A stretch of DNA of 32,000 bases from Alkanindiges illinoisensis DSM 15370 (GTDB lineage Bacteria; Pseudomonadota; Gammaproteobacteria; Pseudomonadales; Moraxellaceae): assembly GCF_000619845.1 (NCBI RefSeq), contig NZ_JHUX01000003.1, forward strand, positions 940,064 through 972,063, in the 5' to 3' direction. Positions within the stretch are counted from its first letter, which is position 1. Every line of letters begins with the position of its first letter. This document shows positions 7,986 through 21,096 of the stretch, piece by piece. The notes under the pieces were generated by a model that had not been told where the DNA came from, searched no databases, and worked only from the letters and a program-made list of their open reading frames with translations. The translations under genes and the position numbers were made by a program.

Positions 7986-9188
7986 ATGAATTTACAAAAT
8001 CCCAAAAAGTTCAAAATGATGGTGGATCAGGCACACGAAGTGGCCCTGAATGTGCTGCGTCCGATTTCGCGGAAATATGACAAAGCCGAACATGCTTACC
8101 CTAAAGAACTGGATATGCTGGCTTCACTGCTTGACGGCATGAATGATAGTGGTGGTTCGGAAACTGGCGCAGCTACGGCCGGAAAACGCGGTGAAACCCA
8201 ACAGCAAGGCATTCGTAATGGCTCCAATATGTCCACAGCCTTGGGTATTATTGAAATGTGCTATGGCGATACGGGTCTGCTGCTGAGTATGCCAAGGCAA
8301 GGCTTGGGTAACTCGGCTATTGCAGCAGTTGCCAATGACGAACAACTGGAACGGTTTAAAGGTAAGTGGGCCGCCATGGCCATTACTGAGCCGGGCTGTG
8401 GTTCTGATTCAGCAGCCATTCGTACCACAGCTGTAAAAGACGGCGATGACTATATTTTAAACGGCGAAAAAATCTTTGTTACCAGTGGCGAGCGAGCCGA
8501 CTGTGTGGTGGTCTGGGCGACACTGGACAAAAAATTGGGTCGAGCGGCCATTAAATCCTTTGTGGTAGAAAAAGGTATACCCGGCATGACTGTGGAGCGA
8601 CTGGAACACAAGCTGGGAATTAAGGCATCAGATACGGCTGCTATTAGCTTCATTGATTGCCGCGTACCGGCTGCCAATCTTTTGGGCAATGCAGAAATTG
8701 ATGTGGCCAAAGGGTTTGCTGGCGTCATGGAAACCTTTGACAATACCCGTCCACTGGTTGCTGCCATGGCTGTGGGTTGTGCCAAAGCGTCGCTGGAGCG
8801 CATCAAGGAAATTTTCAAGGACCAGCTAGATCCCAATTATGCAACGCCAGTGCTAAATACCAGCAATATTGCAGCCACCATTTATCGGCTGGAAGCGGAA
8901 TGGGAAGCTACCCGTTTGCTGACCATCAAAGCATGCTGGATGGCCGATAACAAAATGCCAAACTCCAAGGAAGCCTCCATTGCCAAAGCCAAGGCTGGAC
9001 GGATTGGCAGTGAGATTACCTTAAAATGCGTGGAACTGGCTGCCAGCGTAGGTTATGGTGAGGATGAGTTACTGGAAAAATGGGCACGTGATTCCAAAAT
9101 TCTGGATATTTTTGAAGGTACCCAACAGATTCAGCAATTAATTATTGCCCGCCGCGAACTGGGTAAATCTTCCAGTGAATTGAAGTAA
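7986..9188 (+). CDS. acyl-CoA dehydrogenase (catalytic-type)
   Basis: 400-aa ORF with ITEPGCGSD, ILNGEKIFVTSG, and the catalytic-base motif ILDIFEGTQQIQQLIIAR. It starts 28 nt after the upstream ACAD-fold gene. Confidence 0.9.
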   Translation: MNLQNPKKFKMMVDQAHEVALNVLRPISRKYDKAEHAYPKELDMLASLLDGMNDSGGSETGAATAGKRGETQQQGIRNGSNMSTALGIIEMCYGDTGLLLSMPRQGLGNSAIAAVANDEQLERFKGKWAAMAITEPGCGSDSAAIRTTAVKDGDDYILNGEKIFVTSGERADCVVVWATLDKKLGRAAIKSFVVEKGIPGMTVERLEHKLGIKASDTAAISFIDCRVPAANLLGNAEIDVAKGFAGVMETFDNTRPLVAAMAVGCAKASLERIKEIFKDQLDPNYATPVLNTSNIAATIYRLEAEWEATRLLTIKACWMADNKMPNSKEASIAKAKAGRIGSEITLKCVELAASVGYGEDELLEKWARDSKILDIFEGTQQIQQLIIARRELGKSSSELK

Positions 9189-9220
9189 ATTACACCAGCA
9201 TCCTTAGCTTTTATTTTAAA

Positions 9221-9249
9221 AGCGTAACCTGATCCGTTACACTTTTTAT
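9221..9249. terminator. probable bidirectional terminator between the ACAD operon and galE
   Basis: Stem agcgtaac (9221-9228) / gttacact (9236-9243), 7 of 8 bp paired. T-rich (ttttt) downstream and aaaa upstream. The genes on either side are convergent. Confidence 0.55.
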
Positions 9250-9272
9250 CTCTCTACAGGACTAATATTTGG

Positions 9273-10298
9273 TCAATTTTCGCCATAGCCTTCCGGATTA
9301 TTTTCCTGCCAGCGCCAGGCATCCTTTAGCATGTCTTCCAGCGTATGTTCAGCTTGCCAGTCCAAGCCCTGTTGGGCCTTGGACGGGTCTGCCCAGAATG
9401 CAGTCAAATCTCCTACCCGCCTTGGCGCAACAGTATACGGTACTGCCTTAGCCGTTACATTCTCAAAAGTCTCTACAATTTCCTTTACCGATATGCCACG
9501 CCCTGTACCCAGATTGTAAATGTGTACCTGTCCATCCTGTTGCCTGACTGAAGCCTGCAATGCCTTCACATGCCCCTTCGCCAAATCCACCACATGCAGA
9601 TAATCCCGAATGCATGTACCATCTGGCGTGGGATAGTCACCCCCAAATATTGACAGTTGGGCACGCTTACCCACCGCAACCTGAGTCACAAAAGGCAATA
9701 GATTATTGGGAATTCCCTTAGGGTCTTCACCAATCAAGCCTGAACAATGCGCACCAATCGGATTAAAATAGCGCAATAAAGTCACAGTAAAATTGTTTAC
9801 TGCTGCACTTGTACTGGACAGTATTTGCTCAACCATGATTTTGCTTTGTCCATAAGGATTAGATGCCGTGCCCAAAGGCATCGTTTCCTGATAAGGGACT
9901 GGCGCTTCTGGCCCATACACGGTTGCGGAAGAGCTAAATACAAAATGCGGAACATGGGCAGCTACAGCCGCCTTAATCAGGCAAAGAGAACCGGTCACAT
10001 TATTATCAAAATATTCCAGTGGTTTTTCGGCGCTTTCTCCCACAGCCTTTAACCCTGCAAAATGGATAATTCCATCAATATGATAATTGGCAAATATTTT
10101 TTTCAGTAATGCTTTATCCCTGATATCTCCTTCAATAAATTCAACCGTTTTATGCGTAATATGTGCAATCCGTTCAAACGCCTTTCTGGAACTATTGACC
10201 AGATTATCCAGTGCAATGACGGTATAGCCTGCGTTCAATAACTCTACAATCGTATGTGATCCAATATAACCTGCACCACCAGTAACCAAAATATTCAT
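9273..10298 (-). CDS. galE: UDP-glucose 4-epimerase
   Basis: 341-aa ORF with NILVTGGAGYIGSH (GxxGxxG) and the catalytic YGQSK (YxxxK). It looks collinear with GalE-type short-chain dehydrogenases. Confidence 0.93.
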   Translation of the reverse strand: MNILVTGGAGYIGSHTIVELLNAGYTVIALDNLVNSSRKAFERIAHITHKTVEFIEGDIRDKALLKKIFANYHIDGIIHFAGLKAVGESAEKPLEYFDNNVTGSLCLIKAAVAAHVPHFVFSSSATVYGPEAPVPYQETMPLGTASNPYGQSKIMVEQILSSTSAAVNNFTVTLLRYFNPIGAHCSGLIGEDPKGIPNNLLPFVTQVAVGKRAQLSIFGGDYPTPDGTCIRDYLHVVDLAKGHVKALQASVRQQDGQVHIYNLGTGRGISVKEIVETFENVTAKAVPYTVAPRRVGDLTAFWADPSKAQQGLDWQAEHTLEDMLKDAWRWQENNPEGYGEN

Positions 10299-10394
10299 GC
10301 TTTAAATTTAACCTGCTTACCTTAAAAGGCTTTAATATTCTTTAGTAAATGTATCGCCAATCATAGCCTGATTAACTTTAAACCCCACCATTTT

Positions 10395-11390
10395 TTATAT
10401 AGGTTTCTTAATGATTAGTGCCTGAATTTCCAATCTTTTTTGGGCAGTTTCAGGAAAAGAAAAACTTTCAAAACGGCTTGATTCTGTTTCGACCTGTTCA
10501 GTAGCGGCAAGACTGATAAACAGCTGATTAGATTGATGGACCAAGCAATTTCCAGTTATAGGCACCATAAACAGCAATAATGCTTTATCCTGCGATACAT
10601 ACCTGGTCGTCAGGTCTTTCACCACTGGTTGATCAGAATTGATATAGAGCGAACCTACTGTCTTTGCTGCATTATAGGCAATACCTACGATTGAGATATT
10701 AGGCTTGATTGGTATGCTAATCTGATCGTTACTCTCCAGACAGGCAAATTCACACTGAAGCATCGAAGTTTTTCTATGAATAGTTTTACGGCTATAAAAC
10801 GCCAGGTCAATTACCTCGTAATGATATTTATAGACAGGCGTCAAGGGTTTAATATCTCTTTTTTCATTTAATATTTCAGCGATTTTTAAACCTAATTCGC
10901 AAGCAATCGGTTTTTGAATATGAAAATCAGCTATAAAACAATCAGCTATGGTTATATTGTTTTGTTTGGCGTATTGCTGAATATATTCAAATCCACTTAA
11001 TATAGGGATATTTAACTCATTGGCAATTTTTTTATAAATCAGACCAGAGATAGTTTCTTTATCAAAAGCTTTGCGTGATGGCATAATAAATAAAAAAGGC
11101 AGGCATCCTTTTTCTAATGCACGTGCTATCCCGTATTCAATGAATTCTCTGATTTGTTTTTTAGTAATTGAACCATATTTATAATAATTACGATCATTTA
11201 TCGCTGTTTCCAGGATGAGCCAGTCAAACTGGAAAAAATCAATCTGACTGGCAAAATAAGGAATAATAATGGATGGCGAAGCACCAATACTATTTCTGGC
11301 TACATGAGAAATATAAGGACTTTGTTCAAGGCCACCAGCGTAACCATCCTTATAAATAGAATTGGAAGTGCCAATTAAACAAATATTCAT
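10395..11390 (-). CDS. hypothetical protein; possible degenerate SGNH/GDSL-like esterase or acyltransferase domain plus an unknown C-terminal domain
   Basis: 331-aa ORF. Block-I-like ICLIGTSNS, block-III-like ETAINDRN, and ADFH where block V is normally DxxH. Residues from about 190 to 331 have no motif I recognise. The start lies 9 nt after the pyruvyltransferase stop. Confidence 0.35.
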   Translation of the reverse strand: MNICLIGTSNSIYKDGYAGGLEQSPYISHVARNSIGASPSIIIPYFASQIDFFQFDWLILETAINDRNYYKYGSITKKQIREFIEYGIARALEKGCLPFLFIMPSRKAFDKETISGLIYKKIANELNIPILSGFEYIQQYAKQNNITIADCFIADFHIQKPIACELGLKIAEILNEKRDIKPLTPVYKYHYEVIDLAFYSRKTIHRKTSMLQCEFACLESNDQISIPIKPNISIVGIAYNAAKTVGSLYINSDQPVVKDLTTRYVSQDKALLLFMVPITGNCLVHQSNQLFISLAATEQVETESSRFESFSFPETAQKRLEIQALIIKKPI

Positions 11391-11399
11391 GTAAATTAC

Positions 11400-12494
11400 T
11401 TAGAGTGCGGCAGTATTATGAATACAGAGAATTTTTGCCACTTTGTCGGCCACCTTTCTTTTTTCAGCCACTCTTAAATAGTCCGATAATATGATTTGAT
11501 CATCATTAGTAGTGAAAAGCCTGGGGCTTGCTATAAGCGGCTTGAATGGAGAACCTAAGGCTAGCACCATTCCATGTTTGGCGTCATAGAATCTGGAGTT
11601 GGTAGAATAATAACCCGTAGCACCACATCTGGCTGCTAACAAATGGGGATGAAATCTGCCAGTGATCATAAAATCTCCCTGCTGTACGGGTAAGCCCATG
11701 TTTAATAACATATGATTGCTCCAGCGTATGATGTTGGGAAATTGCTCAAGCAAAGTTTTATAGACCAGATTATCCTTATGGCTACAGGTCCAGAAGGTAA
11801 CCTGATCAAATTCCTGAAAAAAATCTCTGGTAATCTGGGGTGATTGGCCGGTTACTGAGGCTTCAGTGAAACCGGATAAATGCAGCCAGCGGCCGGTATG
11901 CGACTTTGTATTTACCGGATATAAGAAAGCATCATCCAGCCCTGCAACCAGCATTGAGCAGGAATTTCCTACAATAGTTTGCAGGTCATTGATACTTTGC
12001 TCATCGCGACATTCAAAAAAGTCAAAACCCTGAATAATATTTTTCCATGCCAATTTGTCATGTTGGTCCATAGACTTGAACGGTGAAATTCCCATACCTG
12101 TAGCAACAACGGGAACATCCAGTAATTGTCCAAGCCGGACAACAGTAGAGAGTAACCGTGTGGCATTTACCCAGTTGGCAGAAGTATAGCCACCACCTAG
12201 AAAATGAAAGCCGGTAACTTTATCGAATTCTACTACCGTGGACTCTGCATACTGAGTTCCCAATCGATAAAAATCACTATAGCTGCTGCCTTCATTTTGG
12301 GAGTGACGGGGAATACGGCTGACAAAATGGACATTATCGAATTCTTTAAGCAATCTCGCTGTTGCCTCGTGGCCTTTACCATCTACAGTAATTGGGCCGT
12401 CATAGCCTGCTTCCCGATAGTAACGTAACCAGTACAGCACCAATAGCTCATCACCAAAATTTGGTGCACCATTTCCAGCTAATAAATACAACAT
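11400..12494 (-). CDS. polysaccharide pyruvyltransferase family protein (CsaB/WcaK-like)
   Basis: 364-aa ORF. N-terminal GNGAPNFGDELL (the family's G-x-N-x-GD-E motif) and C-terminal ITGRFHPHLLAARCG (R-x-H ... A). Translationally coupled to the upstream gene: GGGAGAG-TAA-TA-ATG. Confidence 0.75.
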   Translation of the reverse strand: MLYLLAGNGAPNFGDELLVLYWLRYYREAGYDGPITVDGKGHEATARLLKEFDNVHFVSRIPRHSQNEGSSYSDFYRLGTQYAESTVVEFDKVTGFHFLGGGYTSANWVNATRLLSTVVRLGQLLDVPVVATGMGISPFKSMDQHDKLAWKNIIQGFDFFECRDEQSINDLQTIVGNSCSMLVAGLDDAFLYPVNTKSHTGRWLHLSGFTEASVTGQSPQITRDFFQEFDQVTFWTCSHKDNLVYKTLLEQFPNIIRWSNHMLLNMGLPVQQGDFMITGRFHPHLLAARCGATGYYSTNSRFYDAKHGMVLALGSPFKPLIASPRLFTTNDDQIILSDYLRVAEKRKVADKVAKILCIHNTAAL

Positions 12495-12496
12495 TA

Positions 12497-13561
12497 TTAC
12501 TCTCCCGCTTTAAATATTTTATTTTCATGAATACTGTTGTTGGAATTAACAGTCGGATTATTGGTTTTAATGGCATTTATTAACGACGCATTATGTATTT
12601 TATTATTTTTAATAATATTAAACTGTGCATGATCGAGATTACTTAAACTGCTACCAAAGGTATAAGTAGTTTTTCCACTCGCCTGGTCCGCTTTACACCA
12701 GCTTGAATGTCCATCTCTGGAGCCAACATATACTGCTGGTTTATTTGAAATACCGGTGTCATAGTAAAAATCATTGGCAATAATCTGATTATAACTTGGC
12801 ATGGTATGCCTTATTTGCTGCCGCTCCCCACAGTTTCTATACAAATAAATTCCACCTTTGGTTCCTACATGATAAAACTTATTATTGGTAATAGTATTTT
12901 TTTCAGAACCATCTATTGCAATTAATTCCCTGCCCGTGTCCAGCTTAAATATATTACCTTGAATCACATTATTGATGGATTCGGCATCCAGATAAACTGC
13001 GGCGCTTTTGGCTTTGCCACTAATCATTGAATCGATTAACTGGACATGATTAACACCAGGAAATACATATAAAGGCGTTGCTCCTTTAGACTGTATATTT
13101 AGATTTTTCAGTGTAATATTACTGGGTGCTATGCTACGAATCATACTGACATAGTCCTGCTGTCTGGATGCTTTCACAATTTCATCACTTGAAAGCCCAT
13201 TTCGTATGCTGATACTCCCCAAAACCGTACAACCCTGAATGGTAATATTTTCAGGTTTACTGTAGTTAATATTGCCTGTCGCCGGATCAATTACTTTTTC
13301 GCTTTTTATTTGCACATCAGAAATTTGTGCTGAATTACAGTTAATAGTTGTTCCACTGGCACCTGAACCTTTGATAACGATCTTTTTGCTAACTATTTGA
13401 CCCTTGTTTAAGGTAAGATCACAGTCAACAGCTACATCCTGTTTTAGCGGATGGGTGCTCGATAAAATGTTAGCCAGTTTGGCAGCGCTACACACCTGTG
13501 CAAAAGCCTCATGGCTTAAAGTCAATAAAATAACAGCCGTTATTAATTTACCAGAATACAT
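12497..13561 (-). CDS. secreted right-handed parallel beta-helix repeat protein (polysaccharide lyase, hydrolase or epimerase-like)
   Basis: 354-aa ORF with the signal peptide MYSGKLITAVILLTLSHEAFA/QV. Repeated beta-helix rungs of about 22-25 aa rich in I/V-x-G/N (ITIQGCTVLGSISIRNG, ITLKNLNIQSKG, VIQGNIFKL, NTITNNKFYH, IIKNNKIHN). AGGTGA lies 7 nt upstream of the ATG. Confidence 0.7.
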   Translation of the reverse strand: MYSGKLITAVILLTLSHEAFAQVCSAAKLANILSSTHPLKQDVAVDCDLTLNKGQIVSKKIVIKGSGASGTTINCNSAQISDVQIKSEKVIDPATGNINYSKPENITIQGCTVLGSISIRNGLSSDEIVKASRQQDYVSMIRSIAPSNITLKNLNIQSKGATPLYVFPGVNHVQLIDSMISGKAKSAAVYLDAESINNVIQGNIFKLDTGRELIAIDGSEKNTITNNKFYHVGTKGGIYLYRNCGERQQIRHTMPSYNQIIANDFYYDTGISNKPAVYVGSRDGHSSWCKADQASGKTTYTFGSSLSNLDHAQFNIIKNNKIHNASLINAIKTNNPTVNSNNSIHENKIFKAGE

Positions 13562-13581
13562 CTTGTACTCACCTGAAAAGT

Positions 13582-13608
13582 GATAAGTAGTGGATCAAAC
13601 TACTTATC
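13582..13608 (-). promoter_or_regulatory. intercistronic hairpin between the GT fusion gene and the beta-helix gene
   Basis: Perfect 10-bp inverted repeat gataagtagt (13582-13591) / actacttatc (13599-13608) with a 7-nt loop, inside the 87-nt gap. On the transcribed strand it is followed by acTTTT. Confidence 0.5.
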
Positions 13609-13648
13609 TTTAATTTAATGCTTAAAATGCCCTATTTATCTGTCGAAT

Positions 13649-16099
13649 TTATTTTCTTAAGGTTCCTAAAAATACCTGTTTTAAGATTGGCGCACCGAAT
13701 ACATGTGAATCGGCAAAAAATGCTTCCGGATTGCTTAATAATTTATATTGTTTTTTTTCAGGCAAGGTGCTCATGAACAACCGATGCATTAGCATAAGCT
13801 GCTTATCCTGAATCATCTTGTTGGAAGATTTATTATGCGATTTAGCAGATGCAGCAGGCTTTTTTTGTCCTTCTACTGGTGGTTTTGTTATAGCCTGATG
13901 TTTGGCAACAGATTGAGTAATAGGTTTTGGAGGTGTTTTAGTCTCTTCAGTAATAGGCTGCGACGTCTCTAACATCATTCTTGAGCGCCAGCCCAGATAG
14001 CTTTTTTCTGAAAACTTGTATCTGGAATTCAGGCCAATATTATATGACCTGCCACGCCAGCAAATACGCTCTACAATAATTTTGTCATAGCCATGCGCTT
14101 TCCGGGATTCAAACTCACGAATGACATCCTCTGCGCTAAACCAGCTATATTTTTCAAAAATCAGCCAGTCAAGCATCTTCAGCACAGCATTCTCGTCAGG
14201 ATGCCACCATGCCTGAAGATTAAGTACATCGATTAGCTCATCAGCTGAAGATATGGCTGTAGCCAATGTACCCCCTAAGCCATAATAAGCATTACCAAAA
14301 TGGTAGACTGGCTTTTGATGCAATAAGGCTAATAAGCCTACCCCTGAGTTATAGGTAACAACCAGATCACAACAATCAATAATGGCATGCACATTATCGC
14401 CTGAGTGAGCCAGAATCACATTGGATGCTGCTTTTAACCACTCTGGATTTTCTTTGCTGAGTGGATGTTGCTTAATCACAAATAGGCAATCTGGTCTGGT
14501 TTCTACCAGTAATTTGATTTGCTGTTCATAACTTTCATAATTGATATAACCCTCAGTAAAGTAGTTGACCGCCATATCATCCCGAAGCTGTAGCGGAATA
14601 AAGACCTTATTTAGGGTACTTGTCCTAAACAGGGTATACTGAAATGACTGCCAGGTCTTAATATACTCATCGCTGGCTTCCAGACTGGCTTCACCAGCAA
14701 TGATATAATCGCGGTATTTTCTGGCCAGCTCCAGATTCACTGGTTGCCGTTCCTGCAAAATTGCATTGGCTTCCCGATAATCAGAATCGCCATAGGCCAC
14801 TTCATCAGCATAATAAATAGTATTGGGCAAGCCACCGCGCTCAATAATCGTTACTTTGGTTCCTGTGCGGCGTGCATATTCAATCAACCCTCTAAACCTT
14901 ACATGACTTTTCATGTAGGGATTAAAGATAAAGATTTCATCAATCTGTGAATTTTCCAGTAAATGATAAGCATTTTTCAGGCTTTCATCATCACCATTGC
15001 TCAGGGTTTTAAGCTTAAAGCCCAGATTGCGTAATGGCAGAAAATAGCCCCAGTGCTTTTTATCACTAAAAATACATAATGCAGTTTTTTCACGCGGAAG
15101 ATAATCAATCTCCAGTATGTTTTCCCGCTTATTCAGATATTGCTGAATAATTTGATTAAAACGATTTCTTTTCCAGTCATTCTCCGCAGTCCAGTATCCC
15201 TGTCCAGCAGGTTTTTCATGATACATATGAAATGCTTTTAATCCCATTGCCTCTGATGGCATGGTAAACACTTCAATAAAACGTCGAAAACCTAAATAAT
15301 CATTGCCTGTCCAAAAAGAATCTTTAAGTGGGCCATAAAAATCCTTATCCATTGAATCACTTTCTGGAATAGTTGATGCAAACAGACCCAAGCGAATAAA
15401 AAATTCAAAATCTTCTGAGCCATGACCCCGAAACGCATCACAGTAACCACCGGCCAGATTAAATAAATCCTTGTGGATAAACATAGCATTACTATAAGGG
15501 GCAACAAACTCAAATTCCTGTCCAAACGCCGTACCTAAAGCTAGCCAGGACAGATCAGCAATAAAATGGTCTTTATCTTCGGCGGTATTTAATGCAAAAA
15601 ACTGTGCTGTTGCTTCTTTGCCAACATGAAATATGGGCATGGTTAGCATTCGGCGTGGGTATCGTGCAATTTCCAGCCGGTTCGCCATATTGGCTAATTT
15701 CAAGAAAATATCCCGGTCATAGACATAGTCAATGTCTGATAACAGTACCAGATCGGTAGGTGCCAACTGAACCGAGATATTTCTGGCTTTTGCCAGCGCA
15801 AAAGTATTCTTATCGTCTACATAGTGGTAGTGTGCCCCTAAAGCCTGACACTTTTCACGAATAATGGTGGCATAAGGTTCTTCTGAACCAAAATCTACAA
15901 TCTGGATATAAGGCTGGGGATTATAGTAGTTGAGTACAAATTCCAGTCGCTCTAGTACCCAAGGATTGATGGCACTGGCACGTATACAAATACAAAAAGC
16001 AATATCTGTGGGGCTGTACTTCTTTTTATCCAGTGAAGTAACAATTTCCAACCCAGAAAGACTAGGAGATTTATAGGTTAACGCTGCCAAATGTGTCAT
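13649..16099 (-). CDS. two-domain glycosyltransferase: N-terminal GT-A (GT2 / beta-4-GalT-like) fused to a KpsC/KpsS-like capsule-biosynthesis (beta-Kdo-transferase-type) domain, with a Lys/Pro-rich tail
   Basis: 816-aa ORF. GT-A part (about aa 30-300): IQIVDFGSEEP, the DxD motif in LLSDIDYVYD, and FRGHGSEDFEFFIRLG, which resembles the GWGGEDxxL motif of the GalT C-terminal region. KpsC/S-like part (about aa 335-700): ERGGLPNTIYYAD, IPLQLRDD, VIKQHPL and VVTYNSGVGLLALLHQKPVYHFGNAYYG. Tail: TKTPPKPITQSVAKHQAITKPPVEGQKKPAASAKSHNK. Confidence 0.75.
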   Translation of the reverse strand: MTHLAALTYKSPSLSGLEIVTSLDKKKYSPTDIAFCICIRASAINPWVLERLEFVLNYYNPQPYIQIVDFGSEEPYATIIREKCQALGAHYHYVDDKNTFALAKARNISVQLAPTDLVLLSDIDYVYDRDIFLKLANMANRLEIARYPRRMLTMPIFHVGKEATAQFFALNTAEDKDHFIADLSWLALGTAFGQEFEFVAPYSNAMFIHKDLFNLAGGYCDAFRGHGSEDFEFFIRLGLFASTIPESDSMDKDFYGPLKDSFWTGNDYLGFRRFIEVFTMPSEAMGLKAFHMYHEKPAGQGYWTAENDWKRNRFNQIIQQYLNKRENILEIDYLPREKTALCIFSDKKHWGYFLPLRNLGFKLKTLSNGDDESLKNAYHLLENSQIDEIFIFNPYMKSHVRFRGLIEYARRTGTKVTIIERGGLPNTIYYADEVAYGDSDYREANAILQERQPVNLELARKYRDYIIAGEASLEASDEYIKTWQSFQYTLFRTSTLNKVFIPLQLRDDMAVNYFTEGYINYESYEQQIKLLVETRPDCLFVIKQHPLSKENPEWLKAASNVILAHSGDNVHAIIDCCDLVVTYNSGVGLLALLHQKPVYHFGNAYYGLGGTLATAISSADELIDVLNLQAWWHPDENAVLKMLDWLIFEKYSWFSAEDVIREFESRKAHGYDKIIVERICWRGRSYNIGLNSRYKFSEKSYLGWRSRMMLETSQPITEETKTPPKPITQSVAKHQAITKPPVEGQKKPAASAKSHNKSSNKMIQDKQLMLMHRLFMSTLPEKKQYKLLSNPEAFFADSHVFGAPILKQVFLGTLRK

Positions 16100-16195
16100 T
16101 AAAAACCACCAACTATTTAATTATTTATATAGAAAGTGTGCGTCGTTTTTATGACAAAACCATTACAAGAAAACAAAAAGAGGCCGTTATAGTCC

Positions 16196-16214
16196 ATCTA
16201 TTAACTTAATAGAT
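16196..16214. promoter_or_regulatory. candidate operator: 9-1-9 perfect palindrome upstream of the glycan cluster
   Basis: atctattaa-c-ttaatagat at 16196-16214, in the AT-rich 182-nt gap upstream of the GT start at 16099. A third copy of the half-site (atctatta) lies at 16234-16241. Confidence 0.4.
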
Positions 16215-16281
16215 ACAGATGTCATTTAGATGAATCTATTATTTTTAATTAGGAATAATTTTATAAGCTAAAAATATCATT

Positions 16282-17046
16282 TTATGAAGTAGCAGGTTTG
16301 AGAGAATATAAAAAATTCATTATATCCCGAAACACCTGTTGATGATCAGCTTCCTGCATCAGCATGTGGCCAGAGTTAGGATAATTTTTGATTTCCTTGA
16401 CTGTTGAACCAGCCTGATCATAAATAATTTTTGCACTTTCCTGATAACAAACATCATCAAGCTCACCTTGCAATACCTGCACAGGACATTCGATACTTGG
16501 CAAGTGCTGGCCTGTTATTTGCGTAAACTTACTCAATTCTTCTAACATCGAAAAATCCAGCTGGGCAAATTCCACCAACTCCTGCTCAATTTGAAAGGCC
16601 GATTTTTGCTCAAACTTTTTATACTCTTCAGCATAACTGATCAGGCGACGCCGTAAATCATCAACCGGACGTTTTTGAATCGGTGAGCATAAGGCTGTCA
16701 CACTGGCTAATGCGTGCTGCTGAGCCAGTCGCAAGGCAAATACACCACCCATCGAATGACCTACAATACTGATTTTTCCATACTGATAACTTTGTAGAAA
16801 CTCTAATGCATTGACAGCATCCTGCCACCACAAGTCAACACTGCTATGCACAATGGCTTCAGCACCTATACCATGTCCATGATAAATTGGTGCACAACAG
16901 GCAAAACCACAATTTTTTAGAAATGTGATGAGCTTTTTTAAATCCTGCGGTGTACCAGTGAAACCATGTAATAGCAAAATGGCATGCGAATCAGCCGGAT
17001 GGCTGGTCGGATGAAAAATCGGCTTGGGGCGTGCAATTTTAAACAT
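16282..17046 (-). CDS. alpha/beta-hydrolase, carboxylesterase-like
   Basis: LLLHGFTG (oxyanion region), the nucleophile elbow VGHSMGG (GxSxG), and a C-terminal GH (NSGHML). I chose the ATG at 17046. The ORF-track start at 17085 is a TTG, and the 13 residues it adds precede MFKIARPKP, which already looks like the protein's N-terminus. Confidence 0.8.
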   Translation of the reverse strand: MFKIARPKPIFHPTSHPADSHAILLLHGFTGTPQDLKKLITFLKNCGFACCAPIYHGHGIGAEAIVHSSVDLWWQDAVNALEFLQSYQYGKISIVGHSMGGVFALRLAQQHALASVTALCSPIQKRPVDDLRRRLISYAEEYKKFEQKSAFQIEQELVEFAQLDFSMLEELSKFTQITGQHLPSIECPVQVLQGELDDVCYQESAKIIYDQAGSTVKEIKNYPNSGHMLMQEADHQQVFRDIMNFLYSLKPATS

Positions 17047-17126
17047 GCGAATATTGAAGTACTGGCAGAGTATCCAGTCTAGCAATACAAGCCTAAGATT
17101 CAGTAACTGTCTGGTTAATCAATGAG

Positions 17127-20496: not shown

Positions 20497-21096
20497 TTAG
20501 CTACAATTGAATTCCAGCATTCTATTAATTTGCTTTAAAATATCGGCACGCGCACTTTTCTTTTTAAATATAGTTGGAACATGTAATAGAAAACTTGCCC
20601 ATTTATAGCTTTCTGTATTTCTGTCATTTGACTCTATAAAATCTCTAAGGTCTATAAGAGACTCACGATTAAATGCCCAAAGAGACTTTCCTTTATAACT
20701 CAATGAATAGAACGCATCACTTGGCCAATTTAAAACATAGACTTTCCTCGTCTGACATATCTCGCAAGTAAATGCCCCATTATCAGTATTATTGCTTCTT
20801 ATTAAATAATTGGAATGATCCCAATCTTCTGGTTTATAGCCATCAGGTAAGTTGGTTATAGTTGCGGTTGAACCACCATTCAAACTTGCATAATAAGTTG
20901 CACTATGCCATTTATGCCCACAGTAATCCTCGTGTGTTTGGTATTCAAAAAATTTGCTCGCTTTAAAATAAGGAATATCTTTCTTCAACTCAATTTTAAC
21001 TACTTCGGCAAATTCAAAAACTGTGTGTTCACCACATAAAGGACAATTTATATCTACTTTATGCGGCATAGGATTCCAGGCATATTTGCCAGTCAT
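20497..21096 (-). CDS. hypothetical protein with a split zinc-ribbon (CxxC ... CxxC)
   Basis: 199-aa ORF that is markedly AT-rich. It contains CPLC (aa 18-21) and CEIC (aa 111-114). There is no signal peptide or TM segment, and I recognise no family. It starts 45 nt downstream of the prmC stop. Confidence 0.55.
   Translation of the reverse strand: MTGKYAWNPMPHKVDINCPLCGEHTVFEFAEVVKIELKKDIPYFKASKFFEYQTHEDYCGHKWHSATYYASLNGGSTATITNLPDGYKPEDWDHSNYLIRSNNTDNGAFTCEICQTRKVYVLNWPSDAFYSLSYKGKSLWAFNRESLIDLRDFIESNDRNTESYKWASFLLHVPTIFKKKSARADILKQINRMLEFNCS

Follow-up and report, generated by a model that had tools for sequence, protein, structure and literature searches.

A strain-variable glycan segment of Alkanindiges illinoisensis as a probable capsule synthesis cassette set apart from export genes

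Four open reading frames are packed on the minus strand of Alkanindiges illinoisensis DSM 15370 (10395..16099, with gaps of 87, 2 and 9 nt), and they raise the question of what glycan they make and how it would leave the cell, as no kps gene was found among the genes of the whole 32-kb stretch analysed here (the window). A preliminary description of this DNA, whose coordinates and gaps were re-derived here with the same result, saw either a self-contained decoration module or a new glycoconjugate pathway, with the acceptor and export route encoded elsewhere or unconventional. Our results point to another reading, which we hold to be probable: positions 9189..16321 correspond to the serotype-specific part (‘region 2’) of a group-2-like, ABC-transporter-dependent capsule system, present here as a detached cassette whose most likely role is the synthesis and decoration of a capsular sugar chain containing Kdo.

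The limits of the locus were drawn by comparison with relatives. Indeed, in the empty-site contigs L002–L006, the blastn alignment ends at window position 16322 and picks up again at 9188, the hydrolase and ACAD genes are directly joined at 71 bp from each other (~92–93% nucleotide identity to the window), and window 9189–16321 is missing. This strain-variable segment of ~7.13 kb contains the genes of the glycosyltransferase (the putative polymerase), beta-helix protein, pyruvyltransferase, SGNH-like protein and GalE. Its left junction cuts into the alpha/beta-hydrolase gene at the 3′ end, and the window-specific end of this gene (16282..16321, minus strand) is replaced at this junction in the empty-site alignment. 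In a second Alkanindiges lineage (L074), the segment occupies the same site with 94.8% nucleotide identity. The UDP-glucose 4-epimerase gene galE, last of the segment (9273..10298, minus strand; NCBIfam TIGR01179, 442 bits for a cut-off of 262), had been counted among the housekeeping flanks; since L002–L006 lack it together with the four genes, and L074 carries it together with them, the flanks stand as housekeeping except for galE, and the variable segment is larger than the block first outlined. The segment has a G+C content of 0.393 vs 0.456 in the remaining window (0.390 for the four ORFs, 0.452 for galE), in line with the AT-richness first seen by eye. As also stated before, no integrase or transposase was found among the window genes, no tRNA in the window scan and no repeats in a search of the block flanks.

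The low G+C content suggests a foreign origin and, together with the presence of the segment in some Alkanindiges lineages and its absence from others, would suit an orphan cassette, acquired or kept by a genome that lacks the kps export and linker genes, yielding no useful product and heading for decay. The KpsC searches go in the same direction: the best 120 matches were all from Acinetobacter (at least 58% identity), and no Alkanindiges name appeared in the best 10 of 150 representative KpsC proteins. However, two lineages ~5% apart in nucleotides both have the five genes intact, with dN/dS values of 0.12–0.22, which indicates purifying selection, and the tight packing (the 2- and 9-nt gaps) has been kept. 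An orphan state on its way to decay thus appears improbable.

The gene at 13649..16099 (minus strand, as for all features below) encodes a two-domain glycosyltransferase of 816 aa, composed of a GT-A domain (aa 36–317, 15149..15994; PF10111, E = 5e-48) and a retaining beta-Kdo-transferase-like domain (~aa 340–700, 14000..15082; PF05159, E = 7e-12 over aa 497–610). The latter match to Capsule_synth is partial (profile positions 146–270 of 310), but both scores exceed the Pfam cut-offs, and the GT-A and KpsC/S-like fusion recognized earlier is therefore retained. In an alignment of 22 homologues (A2, 34–47% identity), the DxD (D122/D124, nt 15728–15736), QxxxD (Q504...D508, nt 14576–14590) and HP (H545-P546, nt 14462–14467) motifs were invariant, and the FRGHGSEDFEF stretch (aa 223–233, nt 15401–15433) occupied invariant columns. 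QxxxD and HP are conserved catalytic/CMP-binding motifs of retaining Kdo transferases, and the related family GT118 transfers pseudaminic acid, not Kdo (PMC12887879). Profile comparison gave weak matches of the GT-A domain to the GT-A enzymes LARGE1, SunS and B4GalT7. The family profile of the C-terminal domain matched WbbB GT99 (5fa0, E = 1.3e-5, best among solved structures) over both the QxxxD and HP motifs, and KpsC (6mgd, E = 5e-4); the resemblance to Kdo transferases of solved structure is weak, and an Acinetobacter KpsS matched the protein pairwise over the QxxxD/HP region (E = 1e-4). From these motifs and profiles, the 816-aa protein is predicted to be a bifunctional hexose/beta-Kdo capsule polymerase.

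The genomic contexts of its homologues, 147 of which share its architecture, also speak for this prediction. The closest ones (45–51% identity, loci L064–L070) lie after kpsM-kpsT and adjoin kpsS, kpsC, kpsD, kpsE and kpsF. Considering 37 species-representative genome loci with flanks of at least 8 kb, kpsM/T/E/D/C/S genes are adjacent to the fusion glycosyltransferase in 24 and no kps gene is adjacent in 13. In a Rhizobium sullae-like contig (L073), all four protein families occur in one kps locus with its exporter adjacent. A conserved part of a capsule locus with an adjacent exporter, the arrangement that the preliminary description had set against its own reading, is thus largely what was found, in these 24 loci and in L073. 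In addition, fusion homologues (38% identity) lie in an rkp-3-like region of S. meliloti pSymB among rkpZ-like, rkpT/S/R, kpsF and O-acetyltransferase genes, and wherever the context of one of the four families is informative, it is a kps or rkp locus. At the DNA level, an enterobacterial member of the fusion family had no match among E. coli complete genomes.

These contexts bear directly on the decoration reading, according to which one hexose and one beta-Kdo would be added, without polymerization, to lipooligosaccharide or another envelope glycan and then receive pyruvate and acyl groups, with no need of the kps machinery. The lack of an exporter in the window and of adjacent kps genes at the 13 loci would agree with it, as would the match to WbbB, which adds a single terminal beta-Kdo cap to an O antigen (PMC9587256, PMC12887879). 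However, WbbB-type capping belongs to an ABC-transporter O-antigen pathway, of which no gene lies nearby, and in most genomes members of the fusion family lie within kps loci. Moreover, a minimal kps locus on a Citrobacter IncX5 plasmid has no glycosyltransferase other than the fusion homologue, which must therefore polymerize there. Since complete kps loci have homologues of the 816-aa protein as their region-2 polymerase gene, a self-contained decoration module is disfavoured, and we regard it as unlikely.

The next two proteins would modify the chain. The 364-aa protein (11400..12494) is a polysaccharide pyruvyltransferase family member, as first proposed (PF04230, E = 3e-9, 37.5 bits for a Pfam cut-off of 25.3), and its homologues adjoin the fusion glycosyltransferase in L020 (54%), L073 (50.6%), L045 (36%) and L036 (35%). 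The 331-aa protein (10395..11390) combines an N-terminal SGNH domain (~aa 1–176, with Ser9, Gly36, Asn65 and His157) and a C-terminal beta-sandwich (~aa 185–331). Its family retains SGNH blocks I, II, III and V (alignment A3), with an Ala replacing the block V Asp in the window copy. Its AlphaFold2 model (pLDDT 91.6, pTM 0.90) has as top Foldseek match the two-domain acetyl-mannan esterase RiCEX (6HFZ, E = 9e-13, TM 0.61–0.65), with which the predicted fold agrees over the full length, SGNH domain and beta-sandwich included; motif blocks and fold thus uphold the SGNH assignment. Unlike two-domain SGNH esterases such as RiCEX, to which it is only 14–15% identical, the protein has no signal peptide, which places it in the cytoplasm. 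It is predicted from this model to be a glycan O-acyl transferase or esterase. Note that only 26 homologues, none of them annotated, were found among 5.8 billion proteins; the protein is the founding member of a rare SGNH family that lacks annotation and of which prophages carry members too.

The 354-aa protein (12497..13561) starts with a visible Sec signal peptide (aa 1–21, …HEAFA|Q, nt 13499–13561) and is of the exported right-handed beta-helix type. It has no Pfam match of its own, and no similarity to VexL or any solved structure was detected, but it shares 39.5% identity with a Sinorhizobium neighbour of the fusion glycosyltransferase that matches PF13229 Beta_helix/NosD, which sustains the initial assignment. 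Beta-helix genes of the kps loci L069, L070 and L073 encode proteins 23–26% identical to it (E = 1e-9 to 2e-13), almost over the full length for L069; a signal-peptide beta-helix protein is a recurring partner of the fusion polymerase. The single-sequence structure model (pLDDT 43.7) was too low for use. VexL, encoded in viaB loci of Burkholderiales, is a periplasmic lyase of the Vi antigen with a beta-helix fold and a PL1 pectate-lyase homologue (PMC6003464); it is likewise a signal-peptide right-handed beta-helix protein, sits in an ABC-transporter-dependent capsule locus and acts on periplasmic polymer, but relatives of the 354-aa protein match PF13229/NosD rather than PL1. The 354-aa protein is predicted to be a periplasmic enzyme processing the capsule glycan, and could be a lyase, hydrolase or epimerase. 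Such an exported partner is more readily understood with a long polymer that passes through the periplasm than with a decorated lipooligosaccharide, which further argues against decoration.

Two hairpins were read from the sequence. The 87-nt spacer that separates the beta-helix gene from that of the polymerase contains one with a 10-bp stem followed by a short T-run (13582..13608), possibly an attenuator or mRNA-stabilizing element. The other (9218..9242), with a 7-bp stem including one G-U pair followed by TTTT, lies 30 nt past the galE stop codon; it scores under the terminator-scan threshold and is likely the end of the transcription unit.

Taken as a capsule cassette, the segment would operate as follows. 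The GT-A domain would use a UDP-sugar to add a hexose. This is probably galactose, with GalE, inherited together with the other genes, as its source; such a donor role had been suggested earlier and gains weight from the place of galE in the variable segment. The C-terminal domain would add beta-Kdo from CMP-Kdo by the GT99/GT107 double-displacement mechanism, with D508 as nucleophile, and the two activities in turn would build a [hexose-Kdo]n chain on a poly-Kdo-lipid primer. The pyruvyltransferase would then add a pyruvate ketal and the cytoplasmic SGNH enzyme an O-acyl group, while the beta-helix protein would trim or modify the polymer in the periplasm. The KpsS/KpsC primer, CMP-Kdo supply and KpsMTED export would depend on genes outside the window. 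The product would be a pyruvylated and probably acylated hexose-Kdo capsule.

The preferred capsule reading has precedents. The closest is CsaA of K. kingae, an 811-aa bifunctional polymerase whose N-terminal part is a GalNAc transferase and whose mid/C-terminal part is a beta-Kdo transferase; it makes a [sugar-Kdo]n capsule, and its csa locus is flanked by arg and hemB, is unlinked to ctrABCD, lipA and lipB, and holds one of four alternative cassettes in nearly all typed Kingella strains (PMC9592894, PMC5070880). Compared by description, both proteins have a similar size (~811–816 aa) and the same order of hexos(amin)yl and beta-Kdo transferases, and both loci place synthesis genes between housekeeping genes away from an exporter. 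Unlike csa, which consists of csaA only, the window also encodes a pyruvyltransferase, an SGNH enzyme, an exported beta-helix protein and galE, and the Alkanindiges relatives have an empty site instead of alternative cassettes. In E. coli, the presence of GT99/GT107-like domains in K-specific genes is correlated with capsules that contain Kdo (PMC13171606), and a companion O-acetyltransferase is often adjacent to the region 2 polymerases (PMC13171606, PMC12887879). As in these group 2/3 polymerases, a Kdo transferase bearing QxxxD and HP is paired here with a second glycosyltransferase, and the predicted SGNH-like protein offers a possible acyl-modifying partner nearby. KrkA (GT140, K13) has an N-terminal Kdo-transferase module with a ribosyltransferase partner and negligible sequence similarity to GT99 and GT107 enzymes (PMC13171606, PMC12887879); by contrast, members of the window family match PF05159 directly, and their partner domain is of the GT-A type. 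Rhizobial rkp-3 regions likewise contain homologues of the fusion, and the R. sullae-like contig all four families, but with the exporter adjacent. The K antigens of rhizobia are typically built of hexose-Kdo disaccharide repeats. The reported KPS of S. meliloti 1021 is a Kdo homopolymer (PMC5539429).

The Kingella precedent also weighs on the idea of a new pathway, in which a pyruvylated Kdo-containing glycan would be built on an unconventional acceptor and exported without KpsMTED. A window without kps genes would allow it, as would other detached triads such as L036, where the order glycosyltransferase, pyruvyltransferase, SGNH protein is seen again between PhoX, TelA, a GntR regulator and DNA ligase. 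However, neither the segment nor its neighbourhood encodes a candidate transporter, flippase or priming enzyme, all informative contexts are of the kps/rkp kind, and an exporter-less synthesis cassette between housekeeping genes is already known from Kingella kingae (PMC9592894, PMC5070880). We consider such a pathway very improbable; of the earlier proposal, the conservative half, an acceptor and export encoded elsewhere, is supported, and nothing points to an unconventional route. Altogether, the segment would be a commonplace capsule ‘serotype’ module that stands away from the export genes.

Re-analysis of the window returned the same four minus-strand ORFs that the preliminary description had placed at 10395-16099, with the same coordinates and the same intergenic gaps of 87, 2 and 9 nt. 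These encode an 816-aa fusion glycosyltransferase (13649-16099), a 354-aa putative beta-helix protein (12497-13561), a 364-aa pyruvyltransferase (11400-12494) and a 331-aa SGNH-like protein (10395-11390), which NCBI names LipB/KpsS-family protein (also plain glycosyltransferase), hypothetical protein, pyruvyl transferase family protein and hypothetical protein, respectively. The AT-richness that had been noticed for this block was also recovered, with a G+C content of 0.390 for the four genes (gene by gene 0.348, 0.430, 0.365 and 0.404) compared to 0.456 for the remainder of the window, and so was the lack of an integrase, a tRNA gene or flanking repeats. The boundary itself had to be moved, since galE (9273-10298, minus strand, G+C 0.452), formerly regarded as a flank, is part of the variable DNA. 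Indeed, five contigs from Alkanindiges relatives (L002-L006), with flanks ~92-93% identical to the window, carry an empty site in which 71 bp separate an alpha/beta-hydrolase gene from the convergent acyl-CoA dehydrogenase (ACAD) gene that comes next. Their alignment to the window breaks off at 16322 and picks up again at 9188, and thus delimits a variable segment of 7.13 kb (9189-16321; G+C 0.393 vs 0.456 outside) containing the four genes and galE. At the left junction (16282-16321), the hydrolase gene (16282-17085) has had its last codons replaced, so that the C-terminal tail of the window copy is unlike that of the 249-aa protein encoded by the empty-site relatives. Presence/absence polymorphism combined with deviant composition is a hallmark of genomic islands, and both are found here. 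Note that a 199-aa ORF located between thiF/moeB and prmC (20497-21096), without Pfam match and with a G+C content of 0.342 (0.270 at the third codon position), is also found in several relatives (e.g., L002 and L004) and consequently lies outside the variable segment.

In a second lineage (contig L074), the segment occupies the same site and is collinear with window positions 8793-14648 at 94.8% identity and with all ORFs intact. Comparison of the two copies gave dN/dS values of 0.12-0.22 across all five genes and 0.03 for the neighbouring ACAD gene, so that the segment genes appear to be under purifying selection, weaker than that acting on the ACAD gene. We consider it unlikely that the segment is a decaying remnant given these values, which speak in the same way against decay if the segment is read as an orphan cassette, itself a very unlikely explanation. 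An origin from a mobile element or a phage was rejected, as neither a tRNA gene nor border repeats were found at the segment, and neither an integrase nor a transposase (nor any kps-type gene) was detected across the 32-kb window. No terminator-like site was found on the minus strand within the block, and a short hairpin followed by TTTT (9218-9242) is located 3′ of galE; together, these suggest that the genes from the polymerase through galE may be transcribed as a single five-gene unit. A perfect 10-bp inverted repeat (13582-13608) was also observed within the 87 nt that separate the polymerase and beta-helix genes, and could allow the polymerase to be expressed independently of the three tailoring genes.

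The 816-aa protein combines a GT-A domain (PF10111, aa 36-317, E 5e-48) with a Kdo-transferase-like domain (~aa 340-700), the latter being recognized by PF05159 (Capsule_synth) at aa 497-610 with 45.9 bits for a cut-off of 20 (E 7e-12), a match that spans only positions 146-270 of the 310 of the profile. A total of 147 homologues, detected in Gamma- and Alphaproteobacteria, Verrucomicrobia and myxobacteria, displayed the same two-domain architecture. In an alignment of 22 sequences that are 34-47% identical to the window protein, the DxD motif of the GT-A part (D122, D124) is invariant and the FRGHGSEDFEF motif is kept, and in the C-terminal part both Q504...D508 (PLQLxDD) and H545-P546 are invariant. 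These two latter motifs are known as the signature that families GT99, GT107 and GT140 of retaining beta-Kdo transferases have in common, in which QxxxD provides the nucleophilic Asp together with a Gln for binding the Kdo carboxylate, and HP takes part in CMP binding (PMC12887879). While direct sequence searches of solved structures with each of the four single proteins gave no match, the family profile of the fusion glycosyltransferase matched WbbB (GT99, E 1.3e-5), over a region spanning the QxxxD and HP motifs, and KpsC (E 5e-4). Specifically, the Q504/D508 motif lines up with LQVEDD of WbbB and LQVHND of KpsS, H545-P546 line up with the HP of both proteins, and the window protein aligns over both motifs with an Acinetobacter KpsS. 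The C-terminal domain thus combines the profile match with both motifs, QxxxD and HP, of the retaining beta-Kdo glycosyltransferases (PF05159; GT99/GT107 superfamily), and its assignment to them on this sequence basis is a predicted one. The N-terminal part gave weak profile matches to the GT-A enzymes LARGE1, SunS and B4GalT7.

Several features of this family lie outside the two catalytic domains. The C-terminal end of the polymerase (aa ~715-816; 13649-13960) contains a low-complexity linker with many Lys, Pro and Gln residues, followed by a short motif, KLxxxPxxFFxDS, that is kept in many of the 22 aligned sequences and could represent a membrane- or complex-association tail. Some family members (~976-985 aa) have in addition a sulfotransferase domain (PF03567), which points to possible sulfated forms of the polymer, and others have TPR repeats or an extra domain at the N terminus (variant architectures in P0076, P0084, P0087 and P0103).

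The closest precedent for such an enzyme is CsaA, the GalNAc/Kdo capsule polymerase of Kingella kingae, an 811-aa protein in which an N-terminal GalNAc transferase precedes a mid/C-terminal beta-Kdo transferase, and whose gene is flanked by arg and hemB and is unlinked to ctrABCD, lipA and lipB (PMC9592894, PMC5070880). Likened by size and domain layout, the two proteins share the arrangement of an N-terminal sugar transferase and a beta-Kdo transferase part, the latter a predicted one in the window protein, and by this analogy CsaA appears to be an exact precedent in layout. A scan of metagenomes with a published csaA primer produced seven hits attributable to chance; none of them was accompanied by the reverse primer or resembled the window protein.

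The genomic context of the homologues points in the same direction as the domains. The closest ones (45-51% identity) all occupied the K-specific site in canonical ABC-transporter capsule loci, with the typical order kpsM-kpsT-[fusion GT]-[O-acetyltransferase or GT-D]-[beta-helix protein]-kpsS-kpsC-(kdsB)-kpsD-kpsE-kpsF, in Acinetobacter-like, Aeromonas and enterobacterial contigs. As an example, a conjugative IncX5 plasmid from Citrobacter freundii encodes a single glycosyltransferase between kpsMT and kpsSCDE, a homologue with 44% identity; judged from this context, it would be the polymerase there, and this minimal locus, together with the clear catalytic motifs of the family, makes the family a tractable candidate polymerase. 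No DNA match was found for an enterobacterial family member among the complete E. coli genomes. Rhizobial homologues are located in the rkp-3-like K-antigen region of pSymB, where that of Sinorhizobium meliloti 1021 (38% identity, ~613.7-615.7 kb, loci L075/L077) adjoins an O-acetyltransferase gene, and the reported KPS of this strain is a Kdo homopolymer (PMC5539429). Among the 37 species-representative loci with at least 8 kb on both sides, kps genes adjoin the fusion glycosyltransferase in 24, and the 13 others may be overcounted since the kps queries were gammaproteobacterial.

Two further observations concern the taxonomic spread of these loci. In Shinella (L020 and L022 on the same contig of Shinella yambaruensis, L025 and L027), two full-length fusion glycosyltransferases are found ~15 kb apart, with a third, distant paralogue (~23% identity) just upstream of one copy, suggesting either several Kdo-containing polymers or a multi-enzyme polymerase. 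Complete group-2-type kps loci also seem widespread in non-baumannii Acinetobacter, in contrast to the known Wzy-type K locus of A. baumannii. KpsC is present in A. terrae, A. guillouiae, A. lwoffii, A. towneri, A. equi and others, and a full kpsM-T-E-D-[fusion GT]-kpsC-kpsS locus was found in A. pecorum, A. lwoffii and several other Acinetobacter (L012-L016 and L064, the last one beside riboflavin/glmU-glmS genes).

The partner genes recur with the polymerase as well. The 364-aa protein matches PF04230 (37.5 bits vs 25.3, profile positions 1-270 of 280), and is a pyruvyltransferase at the family level only, since its match to the CsaB equivalog is far under the cut-off. Its homologues are found beside fusion glycosyltransferases in Shinella (54%), a Polyangiales MAG (36%) and Pseudoroseomonas (35%). 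Neither the 354-aa nor the 331-aa protein has a Pfam match, even at E 10. A single-sequence structure model of the former was poor (pLDDT 43.7), and its putative relationship to beta-helix proteins comes through homologues, located beside fusion glycosyltransferases in Sinorhizobium (39.5%) and Rhizobium (38%). PF13229 is matched by the 39.5%-identical protein of L024 (2.6e-10) and by the homologue of L069 (2.9e-15). The beta-helix genes of two kps loci (L069/L070) encode proteins with PF13229/NosD matches and signal-peptide-like N termini, which share 23-24% identity with the 354-aa protein (E ~1e-13, nearly full length for L069). By analogy, the 354-aa protein would work on the polymer within the periplasm. 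A periplasmic beta-helix lyase, VexL, is known from the Vi loci of Burkholderiales; it was described as lacking from all other ABC-transporter capsule systems known (PMC6003464), and as the sole periplasmic glycanase among such systems; the 354-aa protein differs from it in having no sequence relationship. Exported beta-helix proteins that recur beside the polymerase may thus represent a second class of periplasmic glycanase in ABC-transporter capsule systems.

All four families come together in a Rhizobium sullae-like locus (L073), where homologues of the fusion glycosyltransferase (39%), the beta-helix protein (26%), the pyruvyltransferase (50.6%) and the SGNH-like protein (43.6%) share a 21-kb stretch with KpsM, KpsT, a KpsE-like protein, KpsC, KpsS and a Poly_export protein. 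The glycosyltransferase, pyruvyltransferase and SGNH-like genes occur again in that order in Pseudoroseomonas aerophila (L036), where they are surrounded by unrelated genes (PhoX, TelA and P450 on one flank, GntR and DNA ligase on the opposite one), and this locus is a second detached module.

The 331-aa protein belongs to a very small family, with 26 matches among 5.8 billion proteins, none of which is annotated or has a Pfam domain. In the family alignment, the SGNH blocks I (G7-T8-S9-N10), II (G36), III (N65-D66) and V (H157) are all invariant, and D154 of block V, conserved in at least 90% of the family, is Ala in the window copy. An AlphaFold2 model built from this alignment (pLDDT 91.6, pTM 0.90) matched in Foldseek the two-domain acetyl-mannan esterase RiCEX (6HFZ) over its full length (E 9e-13, TM 0.61-0.65), with further matches to SGNH-bearing phage tail fibres, TesA/TAP and rhamnogalacturonan acetylesterase; the E values for RiCEX, TesA/TAP and rhamnogalacturonan acetylesterase span 9e-13 to 1e-5. 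According to this model, the protein is predicted to adopt the SGNH alpha/beta/alpha fold. No signal peptide was found in the 331-aa protein, and we infer a cytoplasmic O-acyl transferase or esterase acting on the nascent polymer, with either direction of the reaction. Two members of the family are prophage genes, one (L071, 4838-5821; 48% identity) located between lysozyme/holin genes and a tailspike gene (PF12708 + Peptidase_S74) near an integrase, and the other (L072, 10001-11005) within a block of tail genes with a tape-measure gene, a position that is typical of lysogenic-conversion genes. A tblastn search of a collection of cultured-phage genomes with the SGNH protein gave no match. The occurrence of the family both in capsule loci and beside prophage tailspikes hints at a capsule-modifying phage conversion enzyme.

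Altogether, the segment is probably a detached region-2 capsule cassette, an already known kind of arrangement. The identities first proposed for its products are borne out by the matches to PF10111, PF05159 and PF04230 for the GT-A::KpsC/S-like and pyruvyltransferase proteins, and by the conserved blocks and the AlphaFold2/Foldseek fold matches for the SGNH-like protein. The preliminary description had also stated that finding these genes in capsule loci with an adjacent exporter in related genomes would count against its reading, as would a failure of the profile searches; the Pfam support held, and the genes are essentially so placed, with kps genes adjacent in the above majority of loci and in the Rhizobium locus carrying all four families. 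Its view of the exporter and acceptor is supported in the conservative form only, namely that both are encoded elsewhere. Neither kpsM/kpsT nor kpsD/kpsE was found beside the synthesis genes in the 32-kb window. The best 120 matches listed for a KpsC query were all from Acinetobacter, with at least 58% identity, and no Alkanindiges name appeared in the best 10 of 150 listed representative KpsC proteins, neither result being evidence of absence from A. illinoisensis. It appears unlikely that the cassette decorates lipooligosaccharide, and a new export route is highly improbable. In a broader version, A. illinoisensis would have neither kpsMTED nor kpsCS, and the cassette, like other detached copies of the glycosyltransferase, pyruvyltransferase and SGNH triad such as that of P. 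aerophila, would build and export a pyruvylated Kdo-containing glycan on another acceptor and by another route, with the exported beta-helix protein and the rare, prophage-shared SGNH family as dedicated parts; we regard this as quite unlikely.

Within the capsule reading, the 816-aa protein would function as a CsaA-like bifunctional polymerase, alternating the transfer of hexose from a UDP-sugar by its GT-A domain with that of Kdo from CMP-Kdo through the nucleophile D508. The hexose would be supplied by GalE, in which the position that we take to be equivalent to the gatekeeper Tyr299 of the E. coli enzyme is a Phe (…DLTAFWAD…), a lead that may favour UDP-Gal over UDP-GalNAc. The chain would be decorated by the pyruvyltransferase and the SGNH enzyme and processed in the periplasm by the beta-helix enzyme, with priming by KpsS/KpsC, export by KpsMTED and the supply of CMP-Kdo provided from elsewhere in the genome. 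In E. coli kps clusters, GT99/GT107-like domains in K-specific genes correlate with Kdo-containing capsules (PMC13171606).

As a capsule cassette, the segment is routine. Kdo transferases of capsule variable regions are only just being characterised (KrkA, 2026), and the family combining GT-A and PF05159-like domains is widespread; the prophage-shared SGNH family and the recurring exported beta-helix partner provide side leads. Alkanindiges are environmental hydrocarbon degraders related to Acinetobacter, and some of their lineages are predicted to make a pyruvylated hexose-Kdo capsule and others not.
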